The notes under the pieces: generated by a model
What the model saw: only the letters and a program-made list of their open reading frames with translations
Databases searched by the model: none
What the model was told of the DNA's origin: nothing
Source of the DNA: a virus
Taxonomy: Duplodnaviria > Heunggongvirae > Uroviricota > Caudoviricetes
IMG/VR virus record: IMGVR_UViG_3300031521_000016
Location: 35,895 to 99,894 of that record
Reading direction: 5' to 3' (one strand)
Length of the DNA stretch: 64,000 nucleotides
Program-made: the position numbers and the translations under genes
Part shown: positions 11,005 to 50,137 of the stretch, in pieces
Layout: every line of letters starts with the position of its first letter
Position numbering within the stretch: the first letter of the stretch is position 1

Positions 11005-11208
11005 TTATTTCTTTTTCTTTTTGTCCTTCACCTTTTCTTTGGGAAGTTCTTCTGTACCACCTATTTCTTCTATAATAGGATTACGTACTTTAGTTTTCCA
11101 TTCCGATTTTGGACAGAAAATCCATCTTGATGTTTCAACTTTAATGTAAGCTTCTGCATCTTTAACTCTCTCAATTCTTTGTGTCGATATCTCCTTTACT
11201 GTTTTCAT
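11005..11208 (-). CDS. hypothetical small basic protein
   Basis: Track ORF followed by a strong hairpin terminator. Confidence 0.4.
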   Translation of the reverse strand: MKTVKEISTQRIERVKDAEAYIKVETSRWIFCPKSEWKTKVRNPIIEEIGGTEELPKEKVKDKKKKK

Positions 11209-11827
11209 CTGGTACTATTGTTTTTCGTTTACGTTTTTTAGCTTTCTTTAAATTCTCTGGTGATAGAAGAGGGGCTCCAATGACTTCATCAATAATATTG
11301 AACTCAGCAGCTGTCACAGGATCCATGTACCAATCAGACTTTGTCCTTTTGTATACTTCCAAATCTTTTTTCGTTAATTTTGTACGTGAAAAGAGTATGT
11401 TTTCACATACTTTAGTCAATCTTTCTCCTTCTTCTATGGATAGTTTTAATCCTTCTAATGAATCCTGCACTCCCATTGCTATTTCATGATACATGATAGT
11501 AGATAAATGGTGAGCTCGTCTCATATGTCCTGATGCTAGGATAAATAGCCCCATGCTCATAGCAGAGCCTAGACATGTTACACATACCGGTGTAGCAGAT
11601 AGTTCTATGGCGCCAATTAAAGCTAGTCCGTCATATACACTTCCACCATACGTATTTAAAAGTATGTGGATAGATGGCCGCTGATATCCATTATAGCTCA
11701 TCTCTTTTTCTTCATCATCTAAGTTAATCTCATAGATTGCCTTTATAATGTCTTCTACTGATAAAGATGTAATAGTTTTACCGAGTATAAAGATTCTTTC
11801 TTTTGGTTTAAAGTCTAGTGTGGCCAA
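11171..11827 (-). CDS. ClpP-family serine protease
   Basis: INTYGGSVYDGLALIGAIE...CLGSAMSMG matches the ClpP GxSxG serine motif, and a His lies downstream. Confidence 0.7.
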   Translation of the reverse strand: MATLDFKPKERIFILGKTITSLSVEDIIKAIYEINLDDEEKEMSYNGYQRPSIHILLNTYGGSVYDGLALIGAIELSATPVCVTCLGSAMSMGLFILASGHMRRAHHLSTIMYHEIAMGVQDSLEGLKLSIEEGERLTKVCENILFSRTKLTKKDLEVYKRTKSDWYMDPVTAAEFNIIDEVIGAPLLSPENLKKAKKRKRKTIVPDENSKGDIDTKN

Positions 11828-12903: not shown

Positions 12904-13401
12904 TTATTTTTCTAATTGTTCTTCGATATAATTTGCAATTATGATAACATCTTCATCTCGCAGCGGCCAAAATTCTTTACCATTTACTTCTACTGCAAAG
13001 TCACCATCTGTTGGATCGATATGAACATTTGTTAATGTATTTACAGGATTATGTTTTGATGCAGAATAATCATCGATGCTTTTCAATAATCGACTATATG
13101 ACGAATCATCACTTTCTCTTGTAGACGGTTCATGCTTGAAGAATGAAATGACATCTTCATTCGTGTCGACCAAATCAATAGAAAGATCACTCCAGTCAGT
13201 TACTTTTTCCCAGTTTTCTACGATGAATATTTTGGCACATATTGCTATGAACTCCATATGTGCAAGATGATCATTGTATGATTCTAAAAAGTTAAAATCT
13301 ACATGTGAATGTGAAGCTTTAATGTGCTTAGACATATCTTCTAATGAAGAAAAACACGGTCTTACTATATGGCCATGTATTAACAATCCATTTCTGTTCA
13401 T
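12904..13401 (-). CDS. hypothetical protein
   Basis: Track ORF. Confidence 0.5.
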   Translation of the reverse strand: MNRNGLLIHGHIVRPCFSSLEDMSKHIKASHSHVDFNFLESYNDHLAHMEFIAICAKIFIVENWEKVTDWSDLSIDLVDTNEDVISFFKHEPSTRESDDSSYSRLLKSIDDYSASKHNPVNTLTNVHIDPTDGDFAVEVNGKEFWPLRDEDVIIIANYIEEQLEK

Positions 13402-14084
13402 TTGTACTTAGTTAGTTTTTCGTCCAGAATTTTTACACCTTCTGTTGCAGTTTGTTGAATAAAGATTCTGTTTCTTTCTCTTACAGGTTCATTGTTCGGA
13501 TCAATAATATAGATTGGAATATCGTCGTATACCAAATCCACTAATCCAGCTGCTGGATATACTTGTAATGATGTTCCAATGACTACTACGATATCTGCTC
13601 GTTCGATAAGTTCGGCTGCTTCGTCCATATTCGGTACACTTTCACCGAACCAAACAATATGTGGTCTTAATGCTGATCCATCGGCTGCTATAGAGCTAGT
13701 TTCGATTTTGAAATCGGCTGGCCAATCTACTATCTTTTTATCACCACATGATTTCATTTTAGTTAACTCACCATGTAAATGTAATACTTTCGTAGAACCG
13801 GCTCTTTCATGTAAATCGTCCACATTTTGTGTTATGATTTGTACATCAAATTCTTTTTCAAGATCTGCCAGATATTTATGGGCAGCATTAGGTTCGACAG
13901 TAGATAATTGTGCTCTTCGTTTATTATAGAATTCTAACATTTGAGCTCGATTCTTTTGCCAGCCAGTTACAGTAGCAACATCTGAAATGTTATATTCTTC
14001 CCATAGACCGTCAGAATCTCGAAAAGTTTTTATTCCACTTTCGGCGCTTATACCAGCACCAGTAAATACGATAAGTTTTTTCAT
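13398..14084 (-). CDS. Sir2-family NAD-dependent deacylase (sirtuin)
   Basis: GAGISAESGIKTFRD, QNVDDLHERAG and HGEL match the sirtuin Rossmann/NAD-binding motifs. Confidence 0.8.
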   Translation of the reverse strand: MKKLIVFTGAGISAESGIKTFRDSDGLWEEYNISDVATVTGWQKNRAQMLEFYNKRRAQLSTVEPNAAHKYLADLEKEFDVQIITQNVDDLHERAGSTKVLHLHGELTKMKSCGDKKIVDWPADFKIETSSIAADGSALRPHIVWFGESVPNMDEAAELIERADIVVVIGTSLQVYPAAGLVDLVYDDIPIYIIDPNNEPVRERNRIFIQQTATEGVKILDEKLTKYK

Positions 14085-14103
14085 TTGTTTTTATTTATGA
14101 TAC

Positions 14104-14113
14104 AAAAATAACA
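14104..14113 (-). promoter_or_regulatory. TGTTATTTTT variant
   Basis: 20 nt upstream of the Sir2 start; TATTTTTG also fits a TAnnTTTG-type -7 box. Confidence 0.3.
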
Positions 14114-14119
14114 CAATTT

Positions 14120-14407
14120 TCATTTAGTGGGAAACGCTAGTTCTTTCTTATGTCTCATATCTTTCTTAGGCTCATACCCAATATAAATAAAATTACCTGA
14201 ATAGAACTGTCTATTCTCATATATTACGTATGAGAACTTATGTTCTCCATGGCATATGAGATTGAATTCAGTATCAGTAACTCTATCTCTATTGAAAGAT
14301 GACATACTACAATTACGCATAGAATCTGGATATACTGATGTTATCTCATATTTCCCATCGAATGTAAAAATATGTCCATGCAAATCTTCTACTTTAGATT
14401 TGAACAT
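14120..14407 (-). CDS. hypothetical protein
   Basis: Track ORF. Confidence 0.45.
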   Translation of the reverse strand: MFKSKVEDLHGHIFTFDGKYEITSVYPDSMRNCSMSSFNRDRVTDTEFNLICHGEHKFSYVIYENRQFYSGNFIYIGYEPKKDMRHKKELAFPTK

Positions 14408-14886
14408 TATGCTAATCTGAATTTTCGCGTAAAGTTACGCAGAAATAAGATTTTTTCCAATTCTTCTTCAGAATCTACATTGAACTGTTTTACCCATTCT
14501 TTATAGGGTTCATCTTCAGTGATATAGTCTGTTTCGACAAAATCAGGATAAGCTTCTTTATCCCATACTCTTTCATCTGCTAACCACACGATACCGGTCA
14601 TTTGATTACCCAAGTCAGGCTCATGGAATACAGCATGTTTTATATTTGCAGCTTCTAAAGCATACGCATGCATATTCATAGTTCCCTTAGAAGCAATAGA
14701 ATCATTAGTAGTACCACCATTTAAGATAATAAATGTTTTATCTACATATGCCCATTTGATGCAATCATCCTGTGGCAAAAAAATGTTCATGTATTCTACA
14801 ACAGCATGTCCAAATTGTATTCCTTTTTGTATTCCACTCAATTGATAAGGTACTAGCCCCATCATTCTATATGTGTATTTTTTCAT
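14407..14886 (-). CDS. hypothetical protein (weak PTH2-like peptidyl-tRNA hydrolase resemblance)
   Basis: GIQKGIQFGHAVV...TFIILNG...GNQMTGIVW is loosely similar to the PTH2 core; weak support. Confidence 0.4.
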   Translation of the reverse strand: MKKYTYRMMGLVPYQLSGIQKGIQFGHAVVEYMNIFLPQDDCIKWAYVDKTFIILNGGTTNDSIASKGTMNMHAYALEAANIKHAVFHEPDLGNQMTGIVWLADERVWDKEAYPDFVETDYITEDEPYKEWVKQFNVDSEEELEKILFLRNFTRKFRLA

Positions 14887-15266
14887 AAAAATATTGTTGT
14901 TTGTATTAATTCATTTAAGTCATGTTTATCTTCTATGACATCTACTTTTTTAGTTTGCTCAAGAACATCGACAACTTCTTGTTCACTGATTACTTCATGA
15001 TACTCACCACTAAACGGTATAGATTCATCTAAAACATATTCATATTCATTTTTTAGATGTTTGAATAATGGTACTCTTTTATGTGTAGTTTCACAGTATG
15101 GACATTCATCATCTATTAATGAGATAATGAGAGAGTCTTTTTTGTAGTAAATCTTCATTTGAACATTACGAATATCGGCTAATAATTCCTTTTCGTGTAA
15201 TTCAAATCCTATACATGTCAATAATAAGCTAGTAACTTTATCGTCAAGATTAAGATTCAGGATCAT
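14883..15266 (-). CDS. hypothetical protein
   Basis: Track ORF. Confidence 0.45.
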   Translation of the reverse strand: MILNLNLDDKVTSLLLTCIGFELHEKELLADIRNVQMKIYYKKDSLIISLIDDECPYCETTHKRVPLFKHLKNEYEYVLDESIPFSGEYHEVISEQEVVDVLEQTKKVDVIEDKHDLNELIQTTIFL

Positions 15267-15795
15267 ATTCGATAAAGGGCTCTGAGTTTGTTATTATCTG
15301 TTTGTATCTATTAAATTCGCACATGGTCAAGTGTATGTTTTCACCACCTCCATAGTTCATACTGTGAACATAGTGTGCTGGAATATCGAGATCATGTTTT
15401 ACACAAAAATCTCTTAACCATTCTGCACATGCTTTACCAGTCTTTTCGACAAATTCTCCATCTGGATCTGCTCCATAATGTTCAAAACTTAAATCGTGGT
15501 CAAAAGAAATCAGCCAAAGAAACTTTTTCTGTTCGAAGAGTTCTGTTATCTTTTGTACAAATTCTGTATACGATCTTACTATTACCCAGTCTGTTTCAGA
15601 ATAGATAACTTTATTCATCGGCATATGCGGCATGTGATAATACATACACTCTCTAGGATGCCGCATATCGTCCAGAAACAATTTATATACTAAGATATCT
15701 CTTTCCATAATAGTTGTAAAGTTTCTTTTTCTGATTCCCAAACTTCTCGAGGTAATCCTGCTCTTGTTCCCTTTTCGAATATTACGCCTGGACAT
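15250..15795 (-). CDS. hypothetical protein
   Basis: Track ORF. Confidence 0.45.
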   Translation of the reverse strand: MSRRNIRKGNKSRITSRSLGIRKRNFTTIMERDILVYKLFLDDMRHPRECMYYHMPHMPMNKVIYSETDWVIVRSYTEFVQKITELFEQKKFLWLISFDHDLSFEHYGADPDGEFVEKTGKACAEWLRDFCVKHDLDIPAHYVHSMNYGGGENIHLTMCEFNRYKQIITNSEPFIEYDPES

Positions 15796-15849
15796 ATTTC
15801 ATACGTCTCTTCGATGTATTCTAGTTCTACCCAATCGGTACGTGGTACT

Positions 15850-16338
15850 TTATTGTCGTTTTCCATCTTCAATGATCAAATAGTTTAGAACAGCTGTCCA
15901 ATCGGGAAATTCTCCTGAACCGAAATGAATATGTTCACCAGTAAAGTCTAATACACCATTAGCATCCCTATCATCAATGATATAGTCTCCTTTTAGCAAG
16001 CCTTTATTATGTGAAAGAATAAGTTTTTTCTTTGCATCGATACCGAATAATACTTCTACACTCTTTCGTTTTTCTCCCCACGCGTCTGGATTACTCCAAG
16101 GTGGTGTACTTAAAATGTAAACTTCATATTTTTCTTGTAAAGCTTTAAATGCTTCTTGTGCACCTTCAATCGGTTCAAGATTCTTATATGCTTCAGGATG
16201 TTGAAATAGCTTATGTTGTTTGATACCTAGTGATGCTAATTCACCTACTCTCTTATCGAAGTCTACTAACACACCATCCATATCGATGTATACAATAGGT
16301 TTGTCAATTTGAATATGTGATCTTAAATAACTACTCAT
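15850..16338 (-). CDS. 5'(3')-deoxyribonucleotidase, HAD family (NT5C-like)
   Basis: HAD motif I VYIDMDGVLVDF and downstream GDYIIDDR. Confidence 0.75.
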   Translation of the reverse strand: MSSYLRSHIQIDKPIVYIDMDGVLVDFDKRVGELASLGIKQHKLFQHPEAYKNLEPIEGAQEAFKALQEKYEVYILSTPPWSNPDAWGEKRKSVEVLFGIDAKKKLILSHNKGLLKGDYIIDDRDANGVLDFTGEHIHFGSGEFPDWTAVLNYLIIEDGKRQ

Positions 16339-18985: not shown

Positions 18986-19324
18986 TTATTTACTTTTTTG
19001 TTTAGCGTAAATGTCTTTGGCATACAGGTTGAAAATTGCCTGTCCAAATTCTTTACTGTAAAGAGTGTACTTATGTGTAGCACGGTCTCCAAAAATTAAT
19101 TCTCCCTGTTCGTTTAATGCAACAGTGGTAGTTTGCAGGTTACAAACAGGTGTTACTACTAGTGTAGAATTGTACTTGTTGTAAAGCTGCGAAGCGTAAA
19201 ATCCAATGACCATCGCGATAGCAATAACCAAAACATTTAACAGATTCTTGAAGATTGGTAAAATCTTGCCAAATAGTTTTTTAACTTGTTCTTTGTCGAT
19301 ACTTACTTTTTCATTTGTTATCAT
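18986..19324 (-). CDS. single-TM protein, holin or i-spanin candidate
   Basis: One central TM helix (LLNVLVIAIAMVIGFYASQLY); sits beside the transglycosylase. Confidence 0.4.
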   Translation of the reverse strand: MITNEKVSIDKEQVKKLFGKILPIFKNLLNVLVIAIAMVIGFYASQLYNKYNSTLVVTPVCNLQTTTVALNEQGELIFGDRATHKYTLYSKEFGQAIFNLYAKDIYAKQKSK

Positions 19325-19348
19325 ATTCTATGTTTTATAATTATGTAC

Positions 19349-19358
19349 AAAAATAACA
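19349..19358 (-). promoter_or_regulatory. TGTTATTTTT variant
   Basis: 25 nt upstream of the start at 19324. Confidence 0.3.
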
Positions 19359-19397
19359 AAAAAGCATATCGTAGTAAAACGCTACCTGACACAAAAT

Positions 19398-19422
19398 GGG
19401 GAGAATCATAATGACACTCCCC
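19398..19422 (-). terminator. hairpin GGGGAG...CTCCCC followed by ATTTTGTG on the coding strand
   Basis: Follows the small lipoprotein ORF. Confidence 0.45.
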
Positions 19423-19441
19423 AAAAGTTCAACTCTATTGA

Positions 19442-19588
19442 TTAAATAGAATCTACACAAGCTATCGTATCGACTACCTGTACAGAATCAGTTTTAATAG
19501 AATCATTTGCAGGTGTTGCTACAGTAGATTGTTTTACACATGCAATAAATCCCATGCAAATAATAGAGATAAGAAGAATCTTTTTCAT
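19442..19588 (-). CDS. small lipoprotein (48 aa), o-spanin-like candidate
   Basis: Manual translation MKKILLISIICMGFIACVKQSTVATPANDS... has a signal peptide and lipobox Cys. Followed by hairpin terminator 19398-19422. Below the ORF-track size cutoff. Confidence 0.4.
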   Translation of the reverse strand: MKKILLISIICMGFIACVKQSTVATPANDSIKTDSVQVVDTIACVDSI

Positions 19589-19695
19589 TTTCGTTTATTT
19601 AATTTGAATATGTTATAGTACACCCTTATAATTGTTCTGTTCTTGTTTAGAAACTGTTTGTGTGTACTAGATAAATAAAAAAATAAAAACTCATA

Positions 19696-20076
19696 ATGAA
19701 ATTAAAAAGCTTTTCAGAATATATCAAAGAGGATGAAAATGTAGATGCTCCTGTAGCTGCACCTAGTTCAGTAGATGATACTAGAGATGAAACGAAAAAG
19801 AAATTTCGTACAAAGAAAGAGTTACTGGGATATACATCTGAAAGTGAACCTGTAATGGCCGTTATAAAAGTAGGACATACTATTGAACTTACTCCAGACG
19901 ATTTTAAACAACTGAAGAATTTAAAAGTTACTCAGTATGAAAGTGACATGTATGAACATGTTAGAGGAGGTAAAGTATATAAGATCAAGAAAGACGGAAA
20001 AGGAAAATATGTAATTTTTCACTATCATAAAACATTACACAAATTAACTCCAGTAGGTACATTTAGATTAGAGTAG
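19696..20076 (+). CDS. hypothetical protein (only plus-strand gene in the window)
   Basis: Track ORF in an otherwise non-coding plus-strand gap, convergent with the Thg1-like gene. Confidence 0.5.
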   Translation: MKLKSFSEYIKEDENVDAPVAAPSSVDDTRDETKKKFRTKKELLGYTSESEPVMAVIKVGHTIELTPDDFKQLKNLKVTQYESDMYEHVRGGKVYKIKKDGKGKYVIFHYHKTLHKLTPVGTFRLE

Positions 20077-20103
20077 TCTAAATGTACCTTGAGTTTACTT
20101 TAG

Positions 20104-20940
20104 TTATTGCAAGTATACTGTCAATATATCGTCGAAGAACTCTTTGTTCTGTGTAAAGATCGGCGTTTCAACAGCTTCCCATTTATTTCGTCTTGCTCCA
20201 TTCTTTAGATACTCAACCTTTTTAATGATTGCTCCTCGCTTCCTGCGGTAATCATACTCATTCCAATTGATACCTTTTTCAAAGATCATATCTTGCATTA
20301 CATCTGTTTTCTTACCGTGTAGTTCTTTTGGGCTGTATAAGCTTTGAGCTACAGAAGAAATAGAATTGCGAGTGGCATCTTGCTGTCTCCAAATGAAATA
20401 ATTTATAACTTCCTGTCTAGCTGGAATAGTGAATACTCTAGCATCAAATTCAGCTAATTTTTTGAAGCATCCCATGATGTCATCATGTGTCTGAAAAACA
20501 AGATTTTCAAATTTTGACAGAGCACGTTTGATTCGCAATTCATTAAACTTATTAGTTGCCATAGAAGCTGATACACTTACAATCTTTTGGATATTATTAT
20601 CGTACCATGCATCGGTTGTTACATCATCGAAATCAGTAATTAATACTGAGATTTCATCAGATTGGACGTAAGCACATTTAGCACCTTGGATATTTTTACA
20701 CAGATATGCTGCAGTAAGATTCATATCTTCAATTAATCCATCATCAAATGGACGTTGCAACCCTTTCGTGTAAGTATGAAATGCTTTTCCATCGATTCTG
20801 ATTACTGCATATGTACGTCTGGGTAGATACATTCGAGTTCTGTTCTCGTAGAACTCTTTCATCCTGTTCCCTAAATCATCTTTTTTATTTTCCACGGTCG
20901 GTGTAATATTTAATGTATAATGCTTGTTGTCTGATGCCAA
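20104..20940 (-). CDS. Thg1-like tRNA 5'-guanylyltransferase (TLP)
   Basis: FYENRTRMYLPRRTYAVIRIDGKAFHTY...RPFDDGLIEDMN...CAYVQSDEISVLITDF matches the Thg1 catalytic core (RxDG, PFD, SDEIS). The start may be the internal M27. Confidence 0.75.
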   Translation of the reverse strand: MASDNKHYTLNITPTVENKKDDLGNRMKEFYENRTRMYLPRRTYAVIRIDGKAFHTYTKGLQRPFDDGLIEDMNLTAAYLCKNIQGAKCAYVQSDEISVLITDFDDVTTDAWYDNNIQKIVSVSASMATNKFNELRIKRALSKFENLVFQTHDDIMGCFKKLAEFDARVFTIPARQEVINYFIWRQQDATRNSISSVAQSLYSPKELHGKKTDVMQDMIFEKGINWNEYDYRRKRGAIIKKVEYLKNGARRNKWEAVETPIFTQNKEFFDDILTVYLQ

Positions 20941-21133
20941 ATTCTCTAGTTAATAAATTCGGCATTGCTCCGCCATTTATTACATCTTCTACATATCCTG
21001 CCATTTTAATAGCATTAAACTCTCTTTCTCTTCCTTGGATAATTCCATCTTCTGCAATTTCAAGGATAGCAGCAGCTAAATCTGCTGCAGTTTCGGCAGC
21101 ATTTACTAAATCGTAATGTTCTAATCTTTTCAT
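20885..21133 (-). CDS. hypothetical protein
   Basis: Track ORF; overlaps the annotated Thg1 start unless Thg1 uses M27. Confidence 0.35.
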   Translation of the reverse strand: MKRLEHYDLVNAAETAADLAAAILEIAEDGIIQGREREFNAIKMAGYVEDVINGGAMPNLLTREFGIRQQALYIKYYTDRGK

Positions 21134-21137
21134 TCTC

Positions 21138-21572
21138 TTAATCTTTTATGAATTTGCCGTGTAATGTACGGTATATAAGTTCTTTGACATATAGTCTATT
21201 AGCTGTACTTTTCCATTTAATGCCTCTTTTCCAATTGTACGATATGCAGTTAATCAACCAAGAATTTGACATTTCAGATATTGGAACCCATTTTAATGGT
21301 TCGTCACCATTCTTGCCTCTACCTCCTCTGCAAACATATTTTCGTATTTCTTTAAATGTGCTATCTGAATAGATAGAGACATCTTTCATTGGTGCTTCTG
21401 GATAATCTGACATTCTTCTGTATGAATTACCACCGTCTAACATGTATCGTTTACCATTAGCATCGTCATGTGTAACATAATGATGTGTATGTAAGGACGT
21501 AAGTATTGTACCATCAGGGGTTTGCATTCTGCAAACTAACATTTTTCTTTCTTTCATATTCAAATATAACAC
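21138..21572 (-). CDS. hypothetical protein
   Basis: Track ORF. Confidence 0.45.
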   Translation of the reverse strand: MLYLNMKERKMLVCRMQTPDGTILTSLHTHHYVTHDDANGKRYMLDGGNSYRRMSDYPEAPMKDVSIYSDSTFKEIRKYVCRGGRGKNGDEPLKWVPISEMSNSWLINCISYNWKRGIKWKSTANRLYVKELIYRTLHGKFIKD

Positions 21573-21583
21573 ATTATTTCTAT

Positions 21584-22006
21584 TTAGAAACCGAATTGTA
21601 TAGATTTTATCAGTCCTCGTTTTTTTATCTCGAATTCATCTACAGTCATACCAGATTTTGAAAATTCAGTAAATATCATGGGATCTTTTCTTATCCAGCT
21701 TAAAGTTTTACTGTTAAGTAATGATTTTTTCTTGATAAGTCCGAATCTATCTTTATATGCAAAATATGTATCGCCAATTTTTACAATTAGTATATCGTAA
21801 ACATATTTATCTGTAGTAGTACATCTTGGTTCAATTGTATCGCCTATAGCATAATATCCTTTTACGACTAACATCTTAACGTAATGACATGCAAGTCCAT
21901 CATGAATGAAACATTTTGTATCTAATATCGTAGGACTATCTTGATTAAGAAGCGAGCGCGTTTCGAATCTTTTTCTGAGTATTCTATCTAAAGTTGCCTG
22001 GTTCAT
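21584..22006 (-). CDS. hypothetical protein with C-terminal QFGF tail
   Basis: Ends ...KKRGLIKSIQFGF; lies immediately downstream of the PARP-like gene. Confidence 0.5.
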   Translation of the reverse strand: MNQATLDRILRKRFETRSLLNQDSPTILDTKCFIHDGLACHYVKMLVVKGYYAIGDTIEPRCTTTDKYVYDILIVKIGDTYFAYKDRFGLIKKKSLLNSKTLSWIRKDPMIFTEFSKSGMTVDEFEIKKRGLIKSIQFGF

Positions 22007-23263
22007 TTAGTTGCTAATTTCTATAATATAGCGGATAGTAGCTTGCGATATATCGTAAATGATGTATTCATTGTTTCGTAAGTCTGCTCCACCCTCAGCG
22101 AATACAGAATCGAAACCATCAGCTGCAAGATTCTTTTTATTTAGCCCGTAATTAGAACGTGTTACATGTTTCTGATTTCCTACGTGAAAGTCAAATAATG
22201 CCAAGAAAGCAGTAGCAGCAGAACCTCTCGCCCAGTATGAACCGGATAATGATGTATAGCCGATAGACTTTTGTGCTTTATCAGCTCCATAGATACCGTC
22301 TCCGAACATAGAACCAGAATATACTGCTCCAGATGGTCTAATCAAAAGCCCTGTCTGTAAAATGTTAAGCCAGTTTTCATTTCTAGAACCATGCCAGAAT
22401 GTTTGTATCTTTTTATTTTTAGCTGAATCTACTTGTTTAATGAAGCGTTCTTCTGTTTGTATATTTTTTACACCGAATGCTCTAACGAATTGTTTAGCAT
22501 TTGGCCCCATAAGCGATTTGATTTTTTGAACTTCTGCATCTGTAATTTCTACCATTTCAAGACCAAGCATCTTTAATGTATCAACTTTTTCATCTGCATC
22601 ATCTTCTTCTCCACCATTTTCTGCAAGTTTTTGTTTCTTCAACATTTCAACTTGTCCTGCCATAGTATCTAAAAGTTTTTGTTCTTTGTCCATCATGTCG
22701 AACAGAGTTTTGTTTTTTGTATCTTTTAGATCGAAGTCTTTGGGTAAAAGATGATAACTTACATGCTTCATCTTTCTAGGTATAATCGAATACAGCTCTA
22801 AGAATAAGTTGTTGATATCATTAACCGTAAGAGTGGATAATCCGGCAGATATCGTATTAATGATGCCTTGTGCTGCATCAACTTGTTGTTGTGTAACGTC
22901 AGATTGAGAAATCGTGTAGTTTTCTTCTACCGTCTTTTTAGCAAAAGCTTGTAGTCTGTCGAAGAATAACTTAATCTTAGCATTAGCAATCTGAGTAATC
23001 GTTTTCTTCTTGCCGGTTTTAACATCAGTAGCAGTGGCTCCAATAGATTCGATGAATAGTGTGGTTACATCTTTATAACCTTTTTTCGTTTTCGCTCGAT
23101 ATGTCTTTTCCCATTCTCTAATCGGATAAGTTTTTTCAGCTGGTTTACCTCCTTGTACTCTACCATATACGACTGTGAATGTTCCATTTTCATTATCAGT
23201 CATATGATAAAATTTGTTGTTATTTTCACTGGTCACCATGACCAATTTTACTACTTTCCCCAT
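22007..23263 (-). CDS. PARP-like ADP-ribosyltransferase with N-terminal WGR domain
   Basis: WGR-like N-terminus (NNKFYHM...VVYGRVQGG...KGYKDV). Catalytic domain FWHGSRNENWLNILQTGL...GDGIYGADKAQKSIGY...NNEYIIYDISQATIRYIIE aligns with the PARP1 H-G-S / Y-Y / E triad. Confidence 0.8.
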   Translation of the reverse strand: MGKVVKLVMVTSENNNKFYHMTDNENGTFTVVYGRVQGGKPAEKTYPIREWEKTYRAKTKKGYKDVTTLFIESIGATATDVKTGKKKTITQIANAKIKLFFDRLQAFAKKTVEENYTISQSDVTQQQVDAAQGIINTISAGLSTLTVNDINNLFLELYSIIPRKMKHVSYHLLPKDFDLKDTKNKTLFDMMDKEQKLLDTMAGQVEMLKKQKLAENGGEEDDADEKVDTLKMLGLEMVEITDAEVQKIKSLMGPNAKQFVRAFGVKNIQTEERFIKQVDSAKNKKIQTFWHGSRNENWLNILQTGLLIRPSGAVYSGSMFGDGIYGADKAQKSIGYTSLSGSYWARGSAATAFLALFDFHVGNQKHVTRSNYGLNKKNLAADGFDSVFAEGGADLRNNEYIIYDISQATIRYIIEISN

Positions 23264-23264
23264 A

Positions 23265-23723
23265 TTATTGTTCTACGTTTTTTATTGTTCCCATTTCTAC
23301 TTCTCTGATAAACTCGGCATTGACGATCCCTACTCTAGGTACAAACTCGGAACCATCAGGTAAGCACCATTCATAATATAGTGATTCGCCATATCTATTA
23401 GCTATTTCTTTTACTGAAAGAAATTTCTTTACACCCAAAAATGAATTTAGTTTCTTTTCCATTTCTTCGATAGAAACGCGGGTATGATCTATACGTCTAG
23501 ATGCATTAGCAATTTTTATTGATAGTACAGATTTGAATAATTCTACATTAGATGAAACATCGTCAAAATCTACATTGTAGCCGTAATTTTGTCCGCCTGG
23601 ATCTGATTCAGCCCAGTCTTCTACATCACCTCTAATGTCTTCTTCCGTGTGTTCATCTGGTACTATCAAGTGATGAAGTCGTTCACCATTTCTAAATCGT
23701 TTTTTTATTTGTATCAGTTTCAT
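23265..23723 (-). CDS. hypothetical protein
   Basis: Track ORF. Confidence 0.45.
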   Translation of the reverse strand: MKLIQIKKRFRNGERLHHLIVPDEHTEEDIRGDVEDWAESDPGGQNYGYNVDFDDVSSNVELFKSVLSIKIANASRRIDHTRVSIEEMEKKLNSFLGVKKFLSVKEIANRYGESLYYEWCLPDGSEFVPRVGIVNAEFIREVEMGTIKNVEQ

Positions 23724-24013
23724 TGCTCTATAAAATAATCGATTTTACATGCTAACATATTTTTATCTTCTATTTTAAATGAGAATTTTCCAGAAGTGTA
23801 AATCATTATGCAATTTTCATGATTTATGATACGATAAGCATCCTTAGGAAGAAAAACTTCTTGTTTTGCTTTATAATCATATTTCAAAACACATAGAACA
23901 CCGGCTATACTTGTTTCTACAGTATCTATTTGTGTCTGAATATTGGGGCTTAATTTTTTTACTTGTTCTTCAAGTTCTGCAAATTCTTTTGCTGTAGTTG
24001 CGATTATTTTCAT
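23720..24013 (-). CDS. hypothetical protein
   Basis: Track ORF. Confidence 0.45.
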   Translation of the reverse strand: MKIIATTAKEFAELEEQVKKLSPNIQTQIDTVETSIAGVLCVLKYDYKAKQEVFLPKDAYRIINHENCIMIYTSGKFSFKIEDKNMLACKIDYFIEQ

Positions 24014-24014
24014 A

Positions 24015-25091
24015 TCAAAATATCATTTCATTAAGTTTTACATTGTCGATATATTTACTTCCGATATATTCGAATTGTCCACGAAACTCTGTACCTGAAC
24101 AATAATCTTCTTTTGTCGAGAAAATTTTATTCCGGTAAAGATATGATTCTACACGAGAAGCTAATTCGAACAGCTGAGGTTGTCTAATGTCATCCTTTGT
24201 GTATTTACCAAAAAATGGTTCGAGTTTTTGAATCTTTACTTTCGATTTACCGAGTAAGATTTTTGAAACTGAGGTAGCAGAGTGAGAAGATGGCAAGTCT
24301 CTGTATAAAATAAGTACGTCATTTAGAATAGCAGATGGCTTACCGACAGTTGATTCTTTATCGAAAATTAAGTTTGCAATATATTTCTTAAAATCGAGAA
24401 AGGACATGTCTGAAAAATCTTGTCTTTCATAACGGTCTGGTACATCGACATAATGTTTCATTTCACTATATTCAATAGAACTTTCACATGGAAATGAAGA
24501 GAGCTCTAAGAACATCATGTGTACTATTTTATTATGTAAATCACCAGGTACATCTTTTATTTTTAAAGAATGATGCATATCTGTAGGAATTTGTTGTGTC
24601 AGATATTCTCTGGCTTCTGCTATATCTTCAAAATATGAAGTATTAGTAACAACTCTTCCTAGTTTGCTATATGTTACTGCAGCAATAGATGCAACTGCTT
24701 TTGGATATGAGCCAAAAATACATCGATTAGTAATAATAAATTCTACTGATTTACGGCATCGTGAATTATGAGAATTTACGAGTTCTCCAGTAGAACATGG
24801 GATATCTTCCCATCCTAAGAAGATTTCAGGAGTGGCTTGCGTCTGCCAGATAAGTTCAATGAGAGCTTCATTTTTTCTCTCTACTACGGCATCGTATGTC
24901 TTACCCGATAATTCGTAATCACACACTTTAAGCGGAACATCATATCCACGCTTATCTTGAACGTAAATTTCGAGGCCCCGCTTAGTAGCAAAACATTGAG
25001 ATATCGTGTATTTTTCATCTCTATGAAAAGATGAATTCTCAGAACGAGAAAAAATAACGTCTCCAGGTTTTAAAAATAGATATTCATTCAT
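24015..25091 (-). CDS. hypothetical protein (358 aa)
   Basis: Track ORF with a promoter-like motif 25 nt upstream. Confidence 0.55.
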   Translation of the reverse strand: MNEYLFLKPGDVIFSRSENSSFHRDEKYTISQCFATKRGLEIYVQDKRGYDVPLKVCDYELSGKTYDAVVERKNEALIELIWQTQATPEIFLGWEDIPCSTGELVNSHNSRCRKSVEFIITNRCIFGSYPKAVASIAAVTYSKLGRVVTNTSYFEDIAEAREYLTQQIPTDMHHSLKIKDVPGDLHNKIVHMMFLELSSFPCESSIEYSEMKHYVDVPDRYERQDFSDMSFLDFKKYIANLIFDKESTVGKPSAILNDVLILYRDLPSSHSATSVSKILLGKSKVKIQKLEPFFGKYTKDDIRQPQLFELASRVESYLYRNKIFSTKEDYCSGTEFRGQFEYIGSKYIDNVKLNEMIF

Positions 25092-25114
25092 TTGATTATT
25101 TTTTTAGAATAAAT

Positions 25115-25124
25115 AAAAATAACA
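25115..25124 (-). promoter_or_regulatory. TGTTATTTTT variant
   Basis: 24 nt upstream of the start at 25091. Confidence 0.3.
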
Positions 25125-25374
25125 CAAAATGATGAACAGAGAAAATGTGTTAGTCTTTCTCTAACATGGTTTTTACGATGTATACACCAAAACCGATTAC
25201 GATAATAGCACCAAATACTTTATCAGAATTATCGACTATGTATTTAAAAAGATCGAACATAAATTGTTTTTTAATTATTACTTGAGAACGCTTAGTATAC
25301 TAAGTCTTGAATAGCATACTTTACCACTAAATGATCTGATAATTATTGTATTCAACGACCGCAAAAGTTCTGGG

Positions 25375-25983
25375 TTACATGAAGAGATCAAGCTTGTCGA
25401 TTAACGTATTTACTTCATCAGAAAAAACAGAACTTTTTTTGACTGTCGTAACATTGTTTGGACTATACATTTCTACCCAATTATACCCAATTAATAGTTG
25501 AGGAATTTCAAGTGGTTTATTACCACGATATTCATAGACATAATTTCCATCTGATCTTGATTGATATTTATATCTGAAATCTGGGTGACCAACTTGTGCA
25601 CTGACACTTACATAAATCTTGTCTGATGTAGTAGATATAGTTTTTGTTTCTCTCACTTTAGGGTTGTAAATATTATTCCTATTCGAGTTCGAATCGAACT
25701 CTTTCTGATAAAAACCTGACGATCCCGATATTCCATCAGAACCTGATGGGCCACGACCTGTTTTAACGGGTTCTGTACGTATCCACGGTTGATCATTTGG
25801 ATATGAGACGGCTTTTGCTTCATTTTCTTTTATCCAATGTTTCTCTCTCTTTTCTTCTAACGAAGCGGGAATTACACTTGGAATATGCTTTACATTCACA
25901 TTTATAATCTCATGTTCTTTTATAGAACTCACTGTTTTTTCGACTCCGAAAAATTTCTTTATTTTGTCATAAAATTTACTCAT
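25375..25983 (-). CDS. hypothetical protein
   Basis: Track ORF. Confidence 0.5.
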   Translation of the reverse strand: MSKFYDKIKKFFGVEKTVSSIKEHEIINVNVKHIPSVIPASLEEKREKHWIKENEAKAVSYPNDQPWIRTEPVKTGRGPSGSDGISGSSGFYQKEFDSNSNRNNIYNPKVRETKTISTTSDKIYVSVSAQVGHPDFRYKYQSRSDGNYVYEYRGNKPLEIPQLLIGYNWVEMYSPNNVTTVKKSSVFSDEVNTLIDKLDLFM

Positions 25984-26369
25984 AACATCATATCATTAGA
26001 TAAGTTATCTGCCCATGATGATACATTTAGTTCTGAAGGCATTACAAGACCTCCATGATCTTCTATAAACTCTTTCTGTGTCAAAATATGTTCGATTCTC
26101 ATAGTATGAGTACGACTACCAGAAGAGTTTGGTTCTATTGTTTCTATTAACCCTTCATTTGCATCAATTACACTTAAGATTTTAAGCTCGAAGAAATTTG
26201 TCTCATAACCACCGTCTGTATCTTCATGATAGTACTTATGATTCATATCTAAACTATCCATCATTCTTTTTCGACGGAGCAACTTAATATTTGTGTTCTT
26301 TATTTGAGCTTCCCAGTCTTTTCCGAGAAGCTCTTTCAATTCAAATTCAGTTAATGTATAATTTCTCAT
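25980..26369 (-). CDS. hypothetical protein
   Basis: Track ORF. Confidence 0.5.
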   Translation of the reverse strand: MRNYTLTEFELKELLGKDWEAQIKNTNIKLLRRKRMMDSLDMNHKYYHEDTDGGYETNFFELKILSVIDANEGLIETIEPNSSGSRTHTMRIEHILTQKEFIEDHGGLVMPSELNVSSWADNLSNDMML

Positions 26370-26668
26370 ACGATAAGTTTTAGATTTTTAGCACGATTAT
26401 ACATTTCACGATAGACTTCATTTTCTAAGAATTTATCTACACTACCAGACATATATTGTCCAGGCACATCTCCATATACGATTGCAGCACAAGGTTCGAT
26501 ATCGTCCATAAAAATGCCCAGATCATAATTACAACCTTTACTATCAGTAAATGGACCTAGATATGTACAATAGCTCCACATCCACTCAACAGCAGATGGA
26601 TAAAACAATAAAGTTACTACTGTTGAAAATTTAGGCTTTGCTTTCTGCGATTCCTCGTTCATATTCAT
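26366..26668 (-). CDS. hypothetical protein
   Basis: Track ORF. Confidence 0.45.
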   Translation of the reverse strand: MNMNEESQKAKPKFSTVVTLLFYPSAVEWMWSYCTYLGPFTDSKGCNYDLGIFMDDIEPCAAIVYGDVPGQYMSGSVDKFLENEVYREMYNRAKNLKLIV

Positions 26669-27056
26669 CTTCTTTTATAAAAGTTGCGTTGTCTTGTAGT
26701 TCAGGATATTTTCTCCACTCTTCCGGTACGTCTCCTTGACGCCATAAGTTGTTCGTATATCTAAAAGAACCATCTTTCATCTTTATGTAGAATTTTCTAC
26801 CACCGTGACCTGCAAAACGAGTTACTCCTGAAAGTTCACCACTGCCATGATATCTAGTGCCATCCACGATATAAGTATGTTCGTCGAATAATTGAATTTT
26901 TTCAATCCAAAATGCACAATTGAAGCAACATTTTTTGTCGTTCATGATATCTGATAGATTGCCTGGATGCATACCCTCAGTGCTGATCCAGACTCTATTA
27001 TGCGGATCGTGTGATTCTTCTCTATTGCATATTGAGCATCTTAGTTCAGTGTCCAT
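26631..27056 (-). CDS. hypothetical Cys/His-rich protein (possible zinc-binding)
   Basis: CSICNREESHDPH near the N-terminus and a later CCFNC motif. Confidence 0.45.
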   Translation of the reverse strand: MDTELRCSICNREESHDPHNRVWISTEGMHPGNLSDIMNDKKCCFNCAFWIEKIQLFDEHTYIVDGTRYHGSGELSGVTRFAGHGGRKFYIKMKDGSFRYTNNLWRQGDVPEEWRKYPELQDNATFIKEDEYERGIAESKA

Positions 27057-27499
27057 TAATCTTGCGATAAAAGTTCTTCTAATACGATCAATCTTTGTCT
27101 TTCTTTTTCTTCAGGAGATAATAAAGTTCCCAACTCAGCTTCAATAAGCTCTAGTTGCTTTTTCTTTTTTGAAACACCGATTACGTCTATGCGCAATTGC
27201 AAGTCTGTCTTCCATTGATCGATAGGATAGCCTTGCCATACATAGTCACTTTTCTTTACATTCAATTCACCGGCCGCTTTTTCGAAATAATCAGCTCTCA
27301 TTAATAAGAATGCCCACATTTCTACAATTTGTGCTACTTGTTGAATAGTGTGTAGATTAACTCTGGTACTAGAAAGTTCAGGATTAAAACTGAATGAGCA
27401 GTTGGTCAACCATGTAGGTTTTTCGATTTTCTTAATCTCTGCTCTTTTCTTTTCTGCTAACTTAAGCAGATCGTGAATTTTTTGATCGTTATTTGCCAT
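27056..27499 (-). CDS. hypothetical protein, paralog A of a duplicated about 150-aa family
   Basis: Shares WQGYPIDQW ... LSPEEK ... LLSQD with 29554-30006 (FLGYSIKDW ... LSPDDK ... LLSDD). Confidence 0.5.
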   Translation of the reverse strand: MANNDQKIHDLLKLAEKKRAEIKKIEKPTWLTNCSFSFNPELSSTRVNLHTIQQVAQIVEMWAFLLMRADYFEKAAGELNVKKSDYVWQGYPIDQWKTDLQLRIDVIGVSKKKKQLELIEAELGTLLSPEEKERQRLIVLEELLSQD

Positions 27500-27500
27500 T

Positions 27501-28646
27501 TTAATTGATGTGTATAGTTGTTTTTGAATTATTTTTTAGTTTGAGTGCTATTCTGACAAATGGTAATGTCGGTAAATCTGTTCTGTCATACAGTGTGATC
27601 ACTTTCTTAGAAAGTTCTTTTATGATTATTTCACCGAATAGATCAAATTCTATTGTACTTACTTTGGTAAGTGTGAACGTTTTAAATGTATAGTTGCGCT
27701 CTCCATAACTATAATATCCATTCGCGTGGTTTTCATTTTTTATTTTATGAGCAGTAAACTTGAAAACATCGAATGTATTACCAAACGGACCATCAGTTTT
27801 TATATACACTTTATCCGGTAGTACATAATCTTGGTCATCCGCTATTGGTTTACGATATGTTGATTTAAAGCTTAATTTGACATCTTCTGTCCAGAACTTA
27901 TTTACAACTCCGAAACATGGTTGAAGTAATAATTTTTCTATCAGATCTGAAAGATTAGATACAGGTGTAGAACTTATTTCTGATGCTATAGATGTTAAAT
28001 CAGATTTAGCTTCATAATTTTGACGTTTAACGTTATATACTACGTGTTTCTTAGAAGGTGTACAGTCAGATGATGAGCTCCAAGTCCGATAATCATAATG
28101 CATAAATTTGCCGAGATAGATTACAGGCTCTTGTTTTTTGTTTTCATATTCTCCACCAATAATCATTTCAGATGATTTTACTTTCTTGGCTTGAATAGAA
28201 GTAAATTCTTTCGATTTCTTATATTCTAAACTACAAGTAGGAATCAAAACGAGATCAGATTTATCCCATGCATATACGAAATCACCATCAAGTCCTTTTC
28301 CTTGGAATGAAGTTGTTTCCGATAAGATGAAAAGAAGGTTTGCAATAGTTATTTCAAACTCAAATCCTCTTGGATCGTAAATTCTAATCTTTTCATTACG
28401 GGCATTCCAACCCCAACGTTCTCTTGCTCCACCTACACCTTTATTTAGAACGAATCCAGATAATGGTGAATTATCGAAATCATCTACACCTAGTTTAGAC
28501 TGAATCCAATCTTTCCAAGATGTTTCTTTGCGTAGTTTGCCTTTCTGATCAATATACACTACATAAGCTAATTTGCCAGTGTAAGTATCCGATCTTTCAT
28601 TATACCCAACTTTTATTGTCTGCGGTATGTATAATTGTTCATTCAT
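27501..28646 (-). CDS. hypothetical protein (381 aa)
   Basis: Track ORF. Confidence 0.5.
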   Translation of the reverse strand: MNEQLYIPQTIKVGYNERSDTYTGKLAYVVYIDQKGKLRKETSWKDWIQSKLGVDDFDNSPLSGFVLNKGVGGARERWGWNARNEKIRIYDPRGFEFEITIANLLFILSETTSFQGKGLDGDFVYAWDKSDLVLIPTCSLEYKKSKEFTSIQAKKVKSSEMIIGGEYENKKQEPVIYLGKFMHYDYRTWSSSSDCTPSKKHVVYNVKRQNYEAKSDLTSIASEISSTPVSNLSDLIEKLLLQPCFGVVNKFWTEDVKLSFKSTYRKPIADDQDYVLPDKVYIKTDGPFGNTFDVFKFTAHKIKNENHANGYYSYGERNYTFKTFTLTKVSTIEFDLFGEIIIKELSKKVITLYDRTDLPTLPFVRIALKLKNNSKTTIHIN

Positions 28647-49861: not shown

Positions 49862-50137
49862 TTATTTTTTGTCCCAATCTTCATCCCACTCTTCTTCATC
49901 AGCTTCTTCTCCAGGTGCAAGTAATGAGTTGATAAATGCAGCTGAACAGCTTTTATGTGTAGGATATGAGTTAAATTCTGGGTAAAAATGATGTACATCG
50001 TGAGGAGTGCCCATTGATATGCTTTTTCCACAATGTTCACAAGTTTTTGTACTTCTCCCTGACTTTACGGGACGATTTTCGTAATAATTTTCAGCTTCAA
50101 GATATTCATGCTTGACTCTTCCTTCTGTATTTTCCAT
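49862..50137 (-). CDS. small zinc-binding protein
   Basis: CEHCGK...HKSC; acidic C-terminus. Confidence 0.4.
   Translation of the reverse strand: MENTEGRVKHEYLEAENYYENRPVKSGRSTKTCEHCGKSISMGTPHDVHHFYPEFNSYPTHKSCSAAFINSLLAPGEEADEEEWDEDWDKK

Follow-up and report, generated by a model that had tools for sequence, protein, structure and literature searches.

The 64,000-nucleotide stretch of viral DNA analysed here (positions 35,895 to 99,894 of IMG/VR record IMGVR_UViG_3300031521_000016; hereafter "the window") carries on its minus strand a gene from the family of poly(ADP-ribose) polymerases (PARPs). The open reading frame (ORF) at 22007-23263 starts with ATG and encodes 418 amino acids, and the gene is tightly packed in a block of co-oriented phage genes. 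By sequence and model, the protein has the minimal core architecture of the PARP1-3 clade: a WGR domain, a helical domain and an ADP-ribosyltransferase (ART) domain. Coordinates of the domains, catalytic residues and other genes discussed below are given in Table 1.

The Pfam PARP domain was recognised in the 418-residue protein well above its threshold (PF00644, E = 5.8e-22, 78.6 bits compared to a cutoff of 26.7), and phrog_23333 matched the protein over its full length (E = 4.8e-54); no NCBIfam model matched it. When the PDB sequences were searched with phmmer, the best hits were catalytic fragments of PARP1 (E = 3.8e-15, query residues 82-416), followed by PARP2, PARP3 and PARP4. As the PARP1 alignment spans residues 82-416, it includes the helical subdomain and is not confined to the catalytic core. 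A preliminary description of this DNA had proposed a PARP-like enzyme with an intact H-Y-E triad and a donor-site tyrosine pair, based on three C-terminal blocks said to be collinear with the PARP1 signature. All three (FWHGSRNENWLNILQTGL, GDGIYGADKAQKSIGY and NNEYIIYDISQATIRYIIE) are present in the translation, and in the phmmer alignment each column of WHGSR, GIYGAD, KS..Y and NEYIIYD is matched by one in the PARP1 segments. The proposed collinearity (HGS, GIY.AD, KS..Y, NEYI.YD) therefore holds.

To assess conservation we used an alignment of 75 family members, consisting of the window protein and 74 homologues at 44-65% identity. The PARP1 counterparts are H862-G863-S864, Y896, K903-S904, Y907 and E988: the triad residues H291, Y325 and E399 correspond to H862, Y896 and E988, and G292, K332, S333 and Y336 correspond to G863, K903, S904 and Y907, respectively. 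H291, G292, S293, Y325, K332, Y336 and E399 are invariant in 75/75 members, and position 333 is Ser in 71 and Ala in 4. The stretch that matches the D-loop region of PARP1 aligns without gaps to both PARP1 and PARP2. The alignments and the structural model described below show that the NAD+ site is intact and strongly conserved and that it lies in a fold like that of PARP1 and PARP2. The Pfam match, the PARP1 alignment and the invariance across the family bear out the proposed triad and tyrosine pair.

The N-terminal WGR assignment is weak for the window sequence alone, where the Pfam match was below threshold (PF05406, E = 0.0034, 17.9 bits compared to a cutoff of 22). At the family level, judged from profiles and the predicted fold, it is solid. 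Pfam detected WGR in 39 of the 75 members (best E = 9.6e-10), and hmmsearch aligned the family profile with the WGR-catalytic chains of PARP1 and PARP2 in a single continuous alignment that begins at the WGR motif (E = 3.5e-26) and pairs YGRV of the profile with WGRVG of PARP1. The PARP1 motif aligned with the phage YGR is W589-G590-R591. G34 and R35 are invariant across the 75 members, and position 33 is Tyr in 50, Trp in 21 and Phe in 4; such [W/Y]GR variation has already been described in bacterial PARPs (PMC5966428). The preliminary description was therefore right to place an N-terminal WGR module in front of the PARP catalytic domain, as family-level Pfam matches, the profile alignment and the model fold all agree. 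It saw two of the three domains and overlooked the helical regulatory domain that completes the PARP1-3 core.

Residues 95-232 match the PARP1 helical subdomain by phmmer, hmmsearch and Foldseek. An AlphaFold2 model built with the family alignment (mean predicted local distance difference test score, pLDDT, 88; predicted template-modelling score, pTM, 0.83) consists of a four-stranded sheet with a helix (residues 1-70), a poorly ordered linker (71-94), an all-helical part (95-232, with helices at 95-115, 125-140, 147-160 and 185-215) and an alpha/beta part (233-418). The top Foldseek matches in the PDB were chains of human PARP1 comprising WGR, helical and ART domains on a DNA double-strand break (7s6m, 4dqy_C) and PARP2 (6x0l), with E values of about 1e-19 to 4e-20 and a template-modelling (TM) score on the query (TMq) of up to 0.64 over about 490 columns (0.63 for 4dqy_C). 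A phage "NAD(+) ADP-ribosyltransferase" in BFVD matched the model with a TM score of 0.84 at 36% identity. Similarity to the PARP catalytic fold, one point on which the preliminary description had made its proposal depend, was therefore found, since the best matches of the model are PARP1 and PARP2 WGR-catalytic chains. Taken alone, the assignment of the protein as an intact PARP-family enzyme with WGR, helical and ART domains is in our judgement close to certain.

Two other identities were considered and ruled out. All sequence and structure matches are H-Y-E PARPs, which is inconsistent with an R-S-E mono-ART of the Alt/VIP2-type fold. Similarly, an RNA 2'-phosphotransferase of the KptA/Tpt1 type (PF01885, H-H-h clade) was ruled out by the lack of any PTS_2-RNA match and by the H-Y-E triad.

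Table 1. Coordinates of the PARP gene, its domains and residues, and of other genes considered (window positions unless a locus is named)
Feature	Position	Strand	Basis or remark
PARP-family gene, 418 residues + stop, WGR - helical domain - ART domain	22007..23263	minus	ORF list, Pfam, PHROG, PDB phmmer, AlphaFold2, Foldseek
WGR domain, residues 1-70; Y33-G34-R35 at 23159-23167	23054..23263	minus	Pfam, family profile, AlphaFold2 model
Flexible linker between WGR and helical domain, residues 71-94	22982..23053	minus	low pLDDT in residues 71-90; residues 74-78 below 50; variable in family alignment
Helical regulatory domain, residues 95-232, counterpart of PARP1 helical domain / PARP_reg	22568..22981	minus	all-helical model; alignment to PARP1 helical subdomain
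ADP-ribosyltransferase catalytic domain, residues 233-418	22010..22567	minus	alignment to PARP1; coordinates checked by translation
H291	22391-22393	minus	triad His
Y325	22289-22291	minus	triad Tyr
K332-S333	22265-22270	minus	donor-site pair
Y336	22256-22258	minus	second Tyr
E399	22067-22069	minus	triad Glu
Downstream 140-residue orphan ORF ending ...KKRGLIKSIQFGF	21584..22006	minus	start abuts PARP stop codon
ORF with tail EKKRGDIKARQFGF	6046-7452	minus	
ORF with tail EIKKRGLIKSIQFGF	21584-22006	minus	
ORF with tail LRKRKISTKFGF	50137-50634	minus	
Upstream 152-residue ORF	23265..23723	minus	stop 1 nt before PARP start; same tight block as 23720-24013, 24015-25091
Thg1-like 3'-5' nucleotidyltransferase (tRNA 5'-end repair type)	20104..20940	minus	Pfam Thg1 E = 2.6e-28; phrog_4717 E = 6.6e-87
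SIR2	13398-14084	minus	E = 6.8e-45
PTH2-fold protein	14407-14886	minus	AlphaFold2, Foldseek, phrog_3668 "hydrolase"
cREC domain	15250-15795	minus	E = 3.5e-15
NT5C/HAD phosphatase	15850-16338	minus	
HD_4 protein	35914-36420		
CCA-adding enzyme	37131-37895		
NADAR-domain protein	40490-40927	minus	Pfam NADAR E = 1e-27; TIGR02464 E = 2.4e-23; PADLOC PDC-M42C E = 1.4e-14
RlaP	42395-43588		
Nudix hydrolase, possible ADP-ribose or NAD pyrophosphatase	50625-51176	minus	Pfam NUDIX E = 4.5e-15
TTTLEVK neighbours in other loci	L094-L172 (+1 of PARP); L002 6154-6618; L003 5443-5982; L010 7410-7949		
Macrodomain protein in other loci	L151-L154, L169, L171, L172, L104 (-1 of PARP)		Clostridia-type lineage

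The surrounding genes identify the carrier. The window has an even G+C content of 32-36%, and 103 of its 109 non-overlapping ORFs lie on the minus strand. It encodes a T4-type portal protein (gene 55246-56964; phrog_213, E = 2.3e-61; PF07230, E = 1.2e-62), a tail sheath stabiliser like gp15 of T4, a helicase and a homing endonuclease, and by this gene content it is part of a T4-like large myovirus. The phage origin of the PARP gene, as originally assumed, is borne out by the portal and the tail sheath stabiliser. No match to the window was returned by a near-identity DNA search of deposited phage genomes (INPHARED), which indicates that this phage is not in that collection. Metagenomic contigs 99.6-99.8% identical to the window do exist; the PARP of these strains is intact and differs solely by Q277H, a conservative change in a variable region. 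The host is probably a member of the Bacteroidota, since ORFs of related phage contigs carry type-IX-secretion sorting domains and the nearest cellular PARPs (37-47% identity) come from Cytophagales, Saprospiraceae, Microscillaceae and Bernardetia. A tRNA scan of the window found none. A scan of 19000-26500 gave counts close to those of shuffled sequence, with 43 promoters (36.9 in shuffled sequence) and 7 terminators (3.1 in shuffled sequence), with Bacteroidota promoters lying outside the models of the scan.

Several other genes of the window were recorded in passing. A homing/HNH endonuclease gene (56957-57727, minus strand; phrog_655, E = 1.8e-34) adjoins the portal gene. A DUF2201 metallopeptidase/VWA-like gene (7715-9340), an AAA/MoxR-like ATPase gene (9355-10920) and a ClpP-family protease gene (11171-11827) stand in a row on the minus strand, their motifs having been read partly by eye. 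Among the 27 ORFs of 40914-63966, one matches Pfam RnlB_antitoxin, the antitoxin to RNase LS/RnlA (E = 9.7e-12), and others match RNaseH_like, a TnsA-like endonuclease and hemerythrin.

Of the genes next to the PARP gene, the 140-residue ORF downstream is probably co-transcribed with it, since its start directly abuts the PARP stop codon. The preliminary description had noted an FGF tail on this ORF and suggested that it could be a partner. The tail is real (the protein ends in ...QFGF), but the partner role was rejected. The ORF had no Pfam, PHROG or PADLOC match, and at none of 86 other PARP loci did a homologue of it lie 8 kb or less from PARP. It was an orphan in both exhaustive searches: its relatives formed only two clusters (100% and 89% identical) among 5.8 billion proteins, and a single representative was found among 1.84 billion sequences when every sequence was scored by HMMER. 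Nor does the tail mark a relation to the PARP, as the same basic C-terminal tail occurs on two unrelated ORFs (6046-7452 and 50137-50634). Three of the 109 window ORFs share it, compared to about 0.02 FGF endings expected by chance. It looks like a candidate short linear motif of several phage proteins, which might, for instance, serve to dock them to a clamp, a protease or a capsid-targeting partner.

The 152-residue ORF immediately upstream had no family matches and no homologue near PARP in other lineages. Also in this gene block, four genes downstream of the PARP gene, is the Thg1-like gene. The TTG start listed for it overlaps an 82-residue ORF (20885-21133) by 56 nt, so that the true start may lie further in; near-identical strains have a 263-residue version. 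Neither the PARP nor any of its six nearest neighbours matched PADLOC-DB v2, and membership in a known anti-phage defence system was rejected on these grounds. Two ORFs at 27056-28646 (minus strand; 147 and 381 residues), 4-5 kb upstream of the PARP gene, had no Pfam match; in another phage clade, seven loci (L050, L068, L071, L072, L080, L081 and L083) have homologues of them at the -1 and -2 positions of PARP.

To ask which neighbours recur, we called and clustered the ORFs at 168 PARP loci (viral, cellular and from annotated phages) and sorted the PARPs, by 55% identity, into 28 lineages. The commonest neighbour, found in 13 of the 28 lineages and in both bacteria and phages, was a small protein with a domain of about 65 residues that we call TTTLEVK after its consensus (A..LM..NG.TTTLEVK..LR..GY.A.Q..VS..M...W...NG..R.Y). 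This protein was at +1 or +2 of PARP (mostly +1) in 42 of 79 cellular loci. Of 90 viral loci, 23 had it, the most frequent place being directly upstream of PARP; its carriers include Cellulophaga phage phi4:1 (gp030) and the closest long-contig relatives of the window. It belongs to no Pfam family, and its profile gave sub-significant matches to five arginine-repressor entries, in the ArgR N-terminal winged helix (E 0.07-0.6). The phage versions are often fused to a C-terminal "..GQAKAAY...DVR..R" module.

An ATP-dependent DNA ligase was present in the PARP flanks (±4-8 kb) of 8 of the 28 lineages, lying two genes from PARP in Cellulophaga phi4:1, and a T4 endonuclease V-type Pyr_excise gene was directly downstream of PARP in the closest long-contig relative. 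Other recurrent neighbours were a CCA-adding enzyme (5 lineages; directly adjacent to PARP in Cellulophaga phi4:1 and in Microscillaceae bacteria), an HD_4 protein (5), RlaP (4), RNA ligase (3), a macrodomain (2) and a PTH2-fold protein (2). Thg1 was near PARP solely in the lineage of the window (1/28). In one viral clade of 47 loci the genes form an array in the order DNA ligase, two RNA ligases, a 67-residue ORF, PARP, PTH2-fold protein, Gp23-fragment protein, 2H-like protein and RlaP; the PTH2-fold member was identified by way of its window homologue (14407-14886). The distant PARPs of Klebsiella, Xanthomonas and Stenotrophomonas phages have unrelated neighbours. We therefore downgraded linkage to RNA repair as a general property of the family: it is strong in the 47-locus clade, is found in few independent lineages and is absent in these distant phages. 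Taken together, the context points loosely to nucleic-acid breaks and their repair, involving DNA more widely than RNA, with no fixed operon.

In metagenome-assembled genomes of Ruminococcus, Oscillospiraceae, Lachnospiraceae and Treponema, a 145-residue macrodomain protein (PF01661, E = 2.8e-07; TARG1-like by eye) is encoded directly upstream of PARP. This arrangement suggests a reversible two-gene ADP-ribosylation module in the Clostridia-type lineage.

Further genes related to NAD, ADP-ribose and RNA repair lie elsewhere in the window. The SIR2 cluster (13398-16338, minus strand) includes, in addition to the genes listed in Table 1, a 95-residue and a 127-residue ORF. Its SIR2-cREC-HAD group is similar to gene neighbourhoods for which PMC9503650 (section 3.7.3) proposed NAD+-dependent RNA repair centred on sirtuins. 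The AlphaFold2 model of the PTH2-fold protein (pLDDT 92.8) matched peptidyl-tRNA hydrolase 2 at Foldseek ranks 1-11 and 13 (2zv3, 3erj, 1xty, 1q7s). It represents a family of more than 2000 unannotated proteins of about 160 residues, none of which is found by Pfam and which directly follow PARP in 47 viral loci (L022-L089, +1/+2). We nevertheless rejected this protein as a PARP partner: the linkage is limited to 2 of the 28 lineages, and in the window its gene is 7 kb away, beside SIR2 and cREC.

The NADAR protein is the only candidate for an ADP-ribose-removing glycohydrolase in the window, its link to the PARP being our inference. It also matches the NCBIfam model "NADAR family anti-phage protein", well under the cutoff, and PDC-M42C is a candidate defence model of PADLOC; the phage NADAR protein may counter or mimic a host defence based on ADP-ribose. 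The Nudix hydrolase (50625-51176) gave weak NCBIfam matches to NMN adenylyltransferase/Nudix and ADPR-responsive families.

PARPs of this kind are widespread. A tblastn search of 50,697 phage records found a homologue in 16, full-length in 15, with 96-99% coverage and 24-44% identity, and several of these were annotated as poly(ADP-ribose) polymerase. They include Cellulophaga phages phi4:1 and phi17:2 (28% identity), Xanthomonas phages XacN1 and Xoo-sp13, Klebsiella phages 05F01, FBKp34 and KP13-16, Stenotrophomonas phages CM1 and RAS14 and a 462-kb uncultured phage (44% identity); the best match in a cultured phage was thus 28% identical and the best in any deposited record 44%. A wider protein search gave 4989 matches at E<1e-5 among 8000 candidates scored, and the best 120 homologues were all 394-439 residues long, many of them on contigs of 100-425 kb. 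In IMG/VR we confirmed 253 viral PARP contigs from many lineages, with 40-67% identity and conserved length. The cellular PARP loci numbered 119 and were mainly from Bacteroidota. A PARP 56% identical to that of the window is carried by JBBACR010000001.1 (L093; 425,361 bp), which was deposited as "Candidatus Pacearchaeota archaeon"; its length equals that of the IMG/VR viral genome L010 (IMGVR_UViG_3300035208_004923), and it is probably a huge phage binned as an archaeon.

Viral PARPs have been noted before. Perina et al. (2014) named those of Aeromonas phage Aeh1 and Cellulophaga phi4:1, noted the conserved triad and suggested that viruses acquired their PARPs from hosts (PMC4245714). Iyer et al. 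(2021) pointed out PARPs in jumbo phages, citing the XacN1 protein, and proposed that they act like the ARTs of T4 but add chains (PMC7824862). The PART/PARP family was later counted among the most frequent viral ARTs and grouped with modifiers of macromolecules (Iyer et al. 2022; PMC9503650), and a 2024 survey entered "PARP1" for gut jumbo phages as a sensor of DNA damage (PMC11662467). The window gene therefore adds a member to an already recognised group of phage PARPs, and the literature already covers its architecture, its occurrence in phages and its likely chemistry.

We propose that the window encodes a functional ADP-ribosyltransferase of the PARP1-3 clade, in the minimal form with WGR, helical and ART domains, that would be activated by nucleic-acid breaks and is carried by a T4-like phage of a probable Bacteroidota host. 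We give this statement as a whole a probability of about 0.65. The break-activated mechanism by itself, reasoned by analogy with PARP1-3 and the DNA-dependent Herpetosiphon PARP, appears moderately likely, and the activation by DNA or RNA suggested in the preliminary description is plausible on the same grounds. In the resting state the helical domain would block productive NAD+ binding. Binding of the WGR domain to a discontinuity in nucleic acid (a nick or an end, most likely in DNA and possibly in RNA) would destabilise the helical domain and give NAD+ access to the site. ADP-ribose would then be moved from NAD+ onto the enzyme itself and onto nearby acceptors, either proteins or nucleic-acid ends. 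During infection this could mark or regulate events at broken nucleic acid, such as phage DNA repair and ligation or, once degradation of host DNA is under way, the takeover of proteins of the host. There is bacterial precedent for such activity: the WGR-PARPs of Herpetosiphon and Clostridioides difficile carry out PARylation, or poly(ADP-ribosyl)ation, in vitro, and the Herpetosiphon enzyme needs DNA to do so (PMC8120803, PMC5966428).

A number of observations weigh against this proposal. PARP_reg is absent from the Pfam matches of the window protein and weak in 5 of its 75 relatives; as Pfam does not recognise this domain in the window protein, autoinhibition by the helical domain is argued purely from fold and alignment. 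The segment from Y336 to E399 is about 18 residues shorter than its PARP1 equivalent, as seen from gaps in the alignment, and the position of PARP1 Y986 is an invariant Asn (N397) in this family. Moreover, H-Y-E is necessary but not sufficient for polymer formation, since PARP3 and PARP4 possess it and are mono-transferases. For these three reasons we put the chances that the phage PARP makes oligo- or poly-ADP-ribose instead of single units, as judged from its sequence, at roughly even. The small protein that accompanies so many PARPs was not found in a six-frame translation of the window (best E = 0.92), and PARP gene neighbours vary so widely between lineages that context gives no single target. 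No biochemical experiment on any phage PARP was found in the literature that we searched. Finally, no PARG, Macro or ADP-ribosylglycohydrolase (ARH) was found among window ORFs of at least 90 residues across the 64 kb. The complete reversible system of PARP with PARG, macrodomain or ARH defined in PMC4245714 is thus not present within the window, which has only NADAR and Nudix proteins. Without PARG or a macrodomain, reversal would need the NADAR protein or host enzymes.

One alternative is that the substrate is the end of a broken RNA or tRNA. The WGR domain would sense the broken RNA and the ART domain would cap its terminal phosphate or, as in KptA/Tpt1, remove the phosphate, with the NADAR and Nudix proteins processing the products. 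This would account for the Thg1-like tRNA 5'-end repair gene four genes downstream in the same block and for the CCA-adding enzyme, RlaP, SIR2 - PTH2-fold - cREC - HAD cluster, NADAR and Nudix genes of the window, which fit the neighbourhoods described in PMC9503650. It is also consistent with the placement of PARP between two RNA-ligase paralogues and the PTH2-fold, 2H-like and RlaP genes in the 47-locus clade, with the CCA-adding enzyme within 4-8 kb of PARP in 5 of the 28 lineages, and with the reported ability of PARP1-3 to ADP-ribosylate terminal phosphates of nucleic acids in vitro (PMC8053099, PMC8385414). However, the linkage is clade-specific (RNA ligase 3/28, PTH2-like 2/28, Thg1 1/28) and may be inherited synteny of early genes, the distant phage PARPs are beside unrelated genes, and no neighbours are more widespread than DNA ligase and a small protein that putatively binds DNA. 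The protein is not of the KptA clade (a PTS_2-RNA match is absent, and occurs in 1 of 75 relatives at E = 0.0041), and the RNA-repair genes of the window are scattered over 30 kb with none adjacent to PARP. We consider this explanation rather unlikely. A wider form of it would make the phage PARP a nucleic-acid-end ART in a network of tRNA/RNA repair and counter-defence (Thg1-like, CCA-adding, RlaP, PTH2-fold, SIR2-cREC-HAD, NADAR and Nudix proteins), sensing RNA or DNA ends cleaved by host nucleases via its WGR domain and capping or processing them; this we hold to be distinctly unlikely.

Another possibility is that the enzyme constitutively modifies specific proteins of the host, for example RNA polymerase, translation factors or defence proteins, in a role like that of T4 Alt/ModA/ModB or AcrIF11, the WGR domain serving only for localisation to DNA. 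The comparison of phage PARPs with chain-adding T4 ARTs (PMC7824862) and the grouping of the PART family, one of the commonest among viral ARTs, with macromolecule modifiers (PMC9503650) favour such a role. The gene is in a block of small ORFs of no assigned function, which we assume to be typical of early host-manipulation regions, and a variable neighbourhood suits an accessory weapon. On the other hand, the strict conservation of the helical regulatory domain and of the Gly and Arg of the WGR motif would be needless in a constitutive, toxin-like ART, and the close chromosomal homologues in many Bacteroidota, with their conserved small neighbour, argue for a housekeeping or stress role instead of a weapon specific to phages. 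There is also no similarity to the R-S-E phage ARTs and no PADLOC match. Host takeover of this kind is therefore unlikely. It could also be speculated that the gene was captured from a host recently and does nothing for the phage, or that it encodes a dead pseudo-enzyme, as gain of viral PARPs from hosts has been suggested (PMC4245714) and the cellular relatives nearest to it come from the likely host phylum, Bacteroidota. This is very improbable, however: all catalytic and NAD+-site residues are intact and invariant, and the family spans more than 250 viral contigs of many lineages at 40-67% identity with conserved length. The gene has the base composition of the rest of the window (33-34% G+C), it is translationally packed into the phage gene block, and near-identical strains keep it intact with only Q277H differing. 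The most likely explanation remains that of a break-activated enzyme of the PARP1-3 type.

In humans, PARP1-3 have a central place as sensors of DNA breaks and are targets of drugs. Their evolutionary origin is debated, transfer from eukaryotes to bacteria being set against a bacterial or phage origin. The window adds one more intact minimal enzyme with WGR, helical and ART domains. With 418 residues and a soluble appearance, it would be well suited as a minimal model in which to study allostery from the WGR to the helical domain and the effects of ADP-ribosylation in infection. If the role in a network repairing RNA or DNA ends were true, it would be a PARP1-3-type role not yet shown in any virus, and it would be relevant to the question whether the break-sensing PARPs of eukaryotes arose from repair enzymes of phages. 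As a discovery the gene is incremental. The points of interest are the conserved small neighbour that is missing from the window phage and the size of the family: published reviews list 28-72 bacterial PARP sequences, compared to metagenomic members in the thousands, over 250 viral contigs and 119 cellular loci here. The family is very common in large Bacteroidota phages and their hosts.

Compared to the core of human PARP1 and PARP2 (4dqy_C, 7s6m, 6x0l), the phage protein has the same three-domain order, fold, H-Y-E triad and donor-site Gly/Ser/Lys/Tyr residues. In contrast, it is only 17-23% identical, lacks the zinc fingers, BRCT domain and N-terminal extension, has YGR as its WGR motif, and belongs to a phage setting without histones, HPF1 or PARG. 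The bacterial WGR-PARPs of Herpetosiphon aurantiacus, C. difficile CD160 and the Cytophagales "clade 1.1" (PMC5966428, PMC8120803) share the minimal WGR-(helical)-catalytic architecture, the H-Y-E triad and the Y/W-G-R motif, and in clade 1 the helical domain is often invisible to Pfam yet present in models, as in the phage protein. As far as their descriptions go, the Herpetosiphon and C. difficile PARPs are paired with a PARG that reverses PARylation, whereas the window has neither PARG nor macrodomain. Bacteroidota PARPs usually have the TTTLEVK neighbour (42/79 loci), unlike that of the window phage.

Closest in kind are the annotated phage PARPs, namely Cellulophaga phi4:1 gp031, XacN1 BBA65562.1, those of Klebsiella phages 05F01 and FBKp34, LR756500.1 from an uncultured huge phage and UniProt A0A8D9PE85, which have the same size, architecture and PHROG (23333) and are already listed as viral PARPs (PMC4245714, PMC7824862). 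Their surroundings can differ: the phi4:1 gene is next to a CCA-adding enzyme, the TTTLEVK protein and DNA ligase, whereas the neighbours of the window PARP are orphan ORFs and the Thg1-like gene. Phage mono-ARTs such as Alt, ModA and ModB of T4 resemble the window protein in being phage-encoded enzymes for NAD+-dependent ADP-ribosyl transfer in infection. They are, however, of the cholera-toxin-like R-S-E type and have no WGR or helical domain, whereas the window protein is of the diphtheria/PARP-like H-Y-E type.

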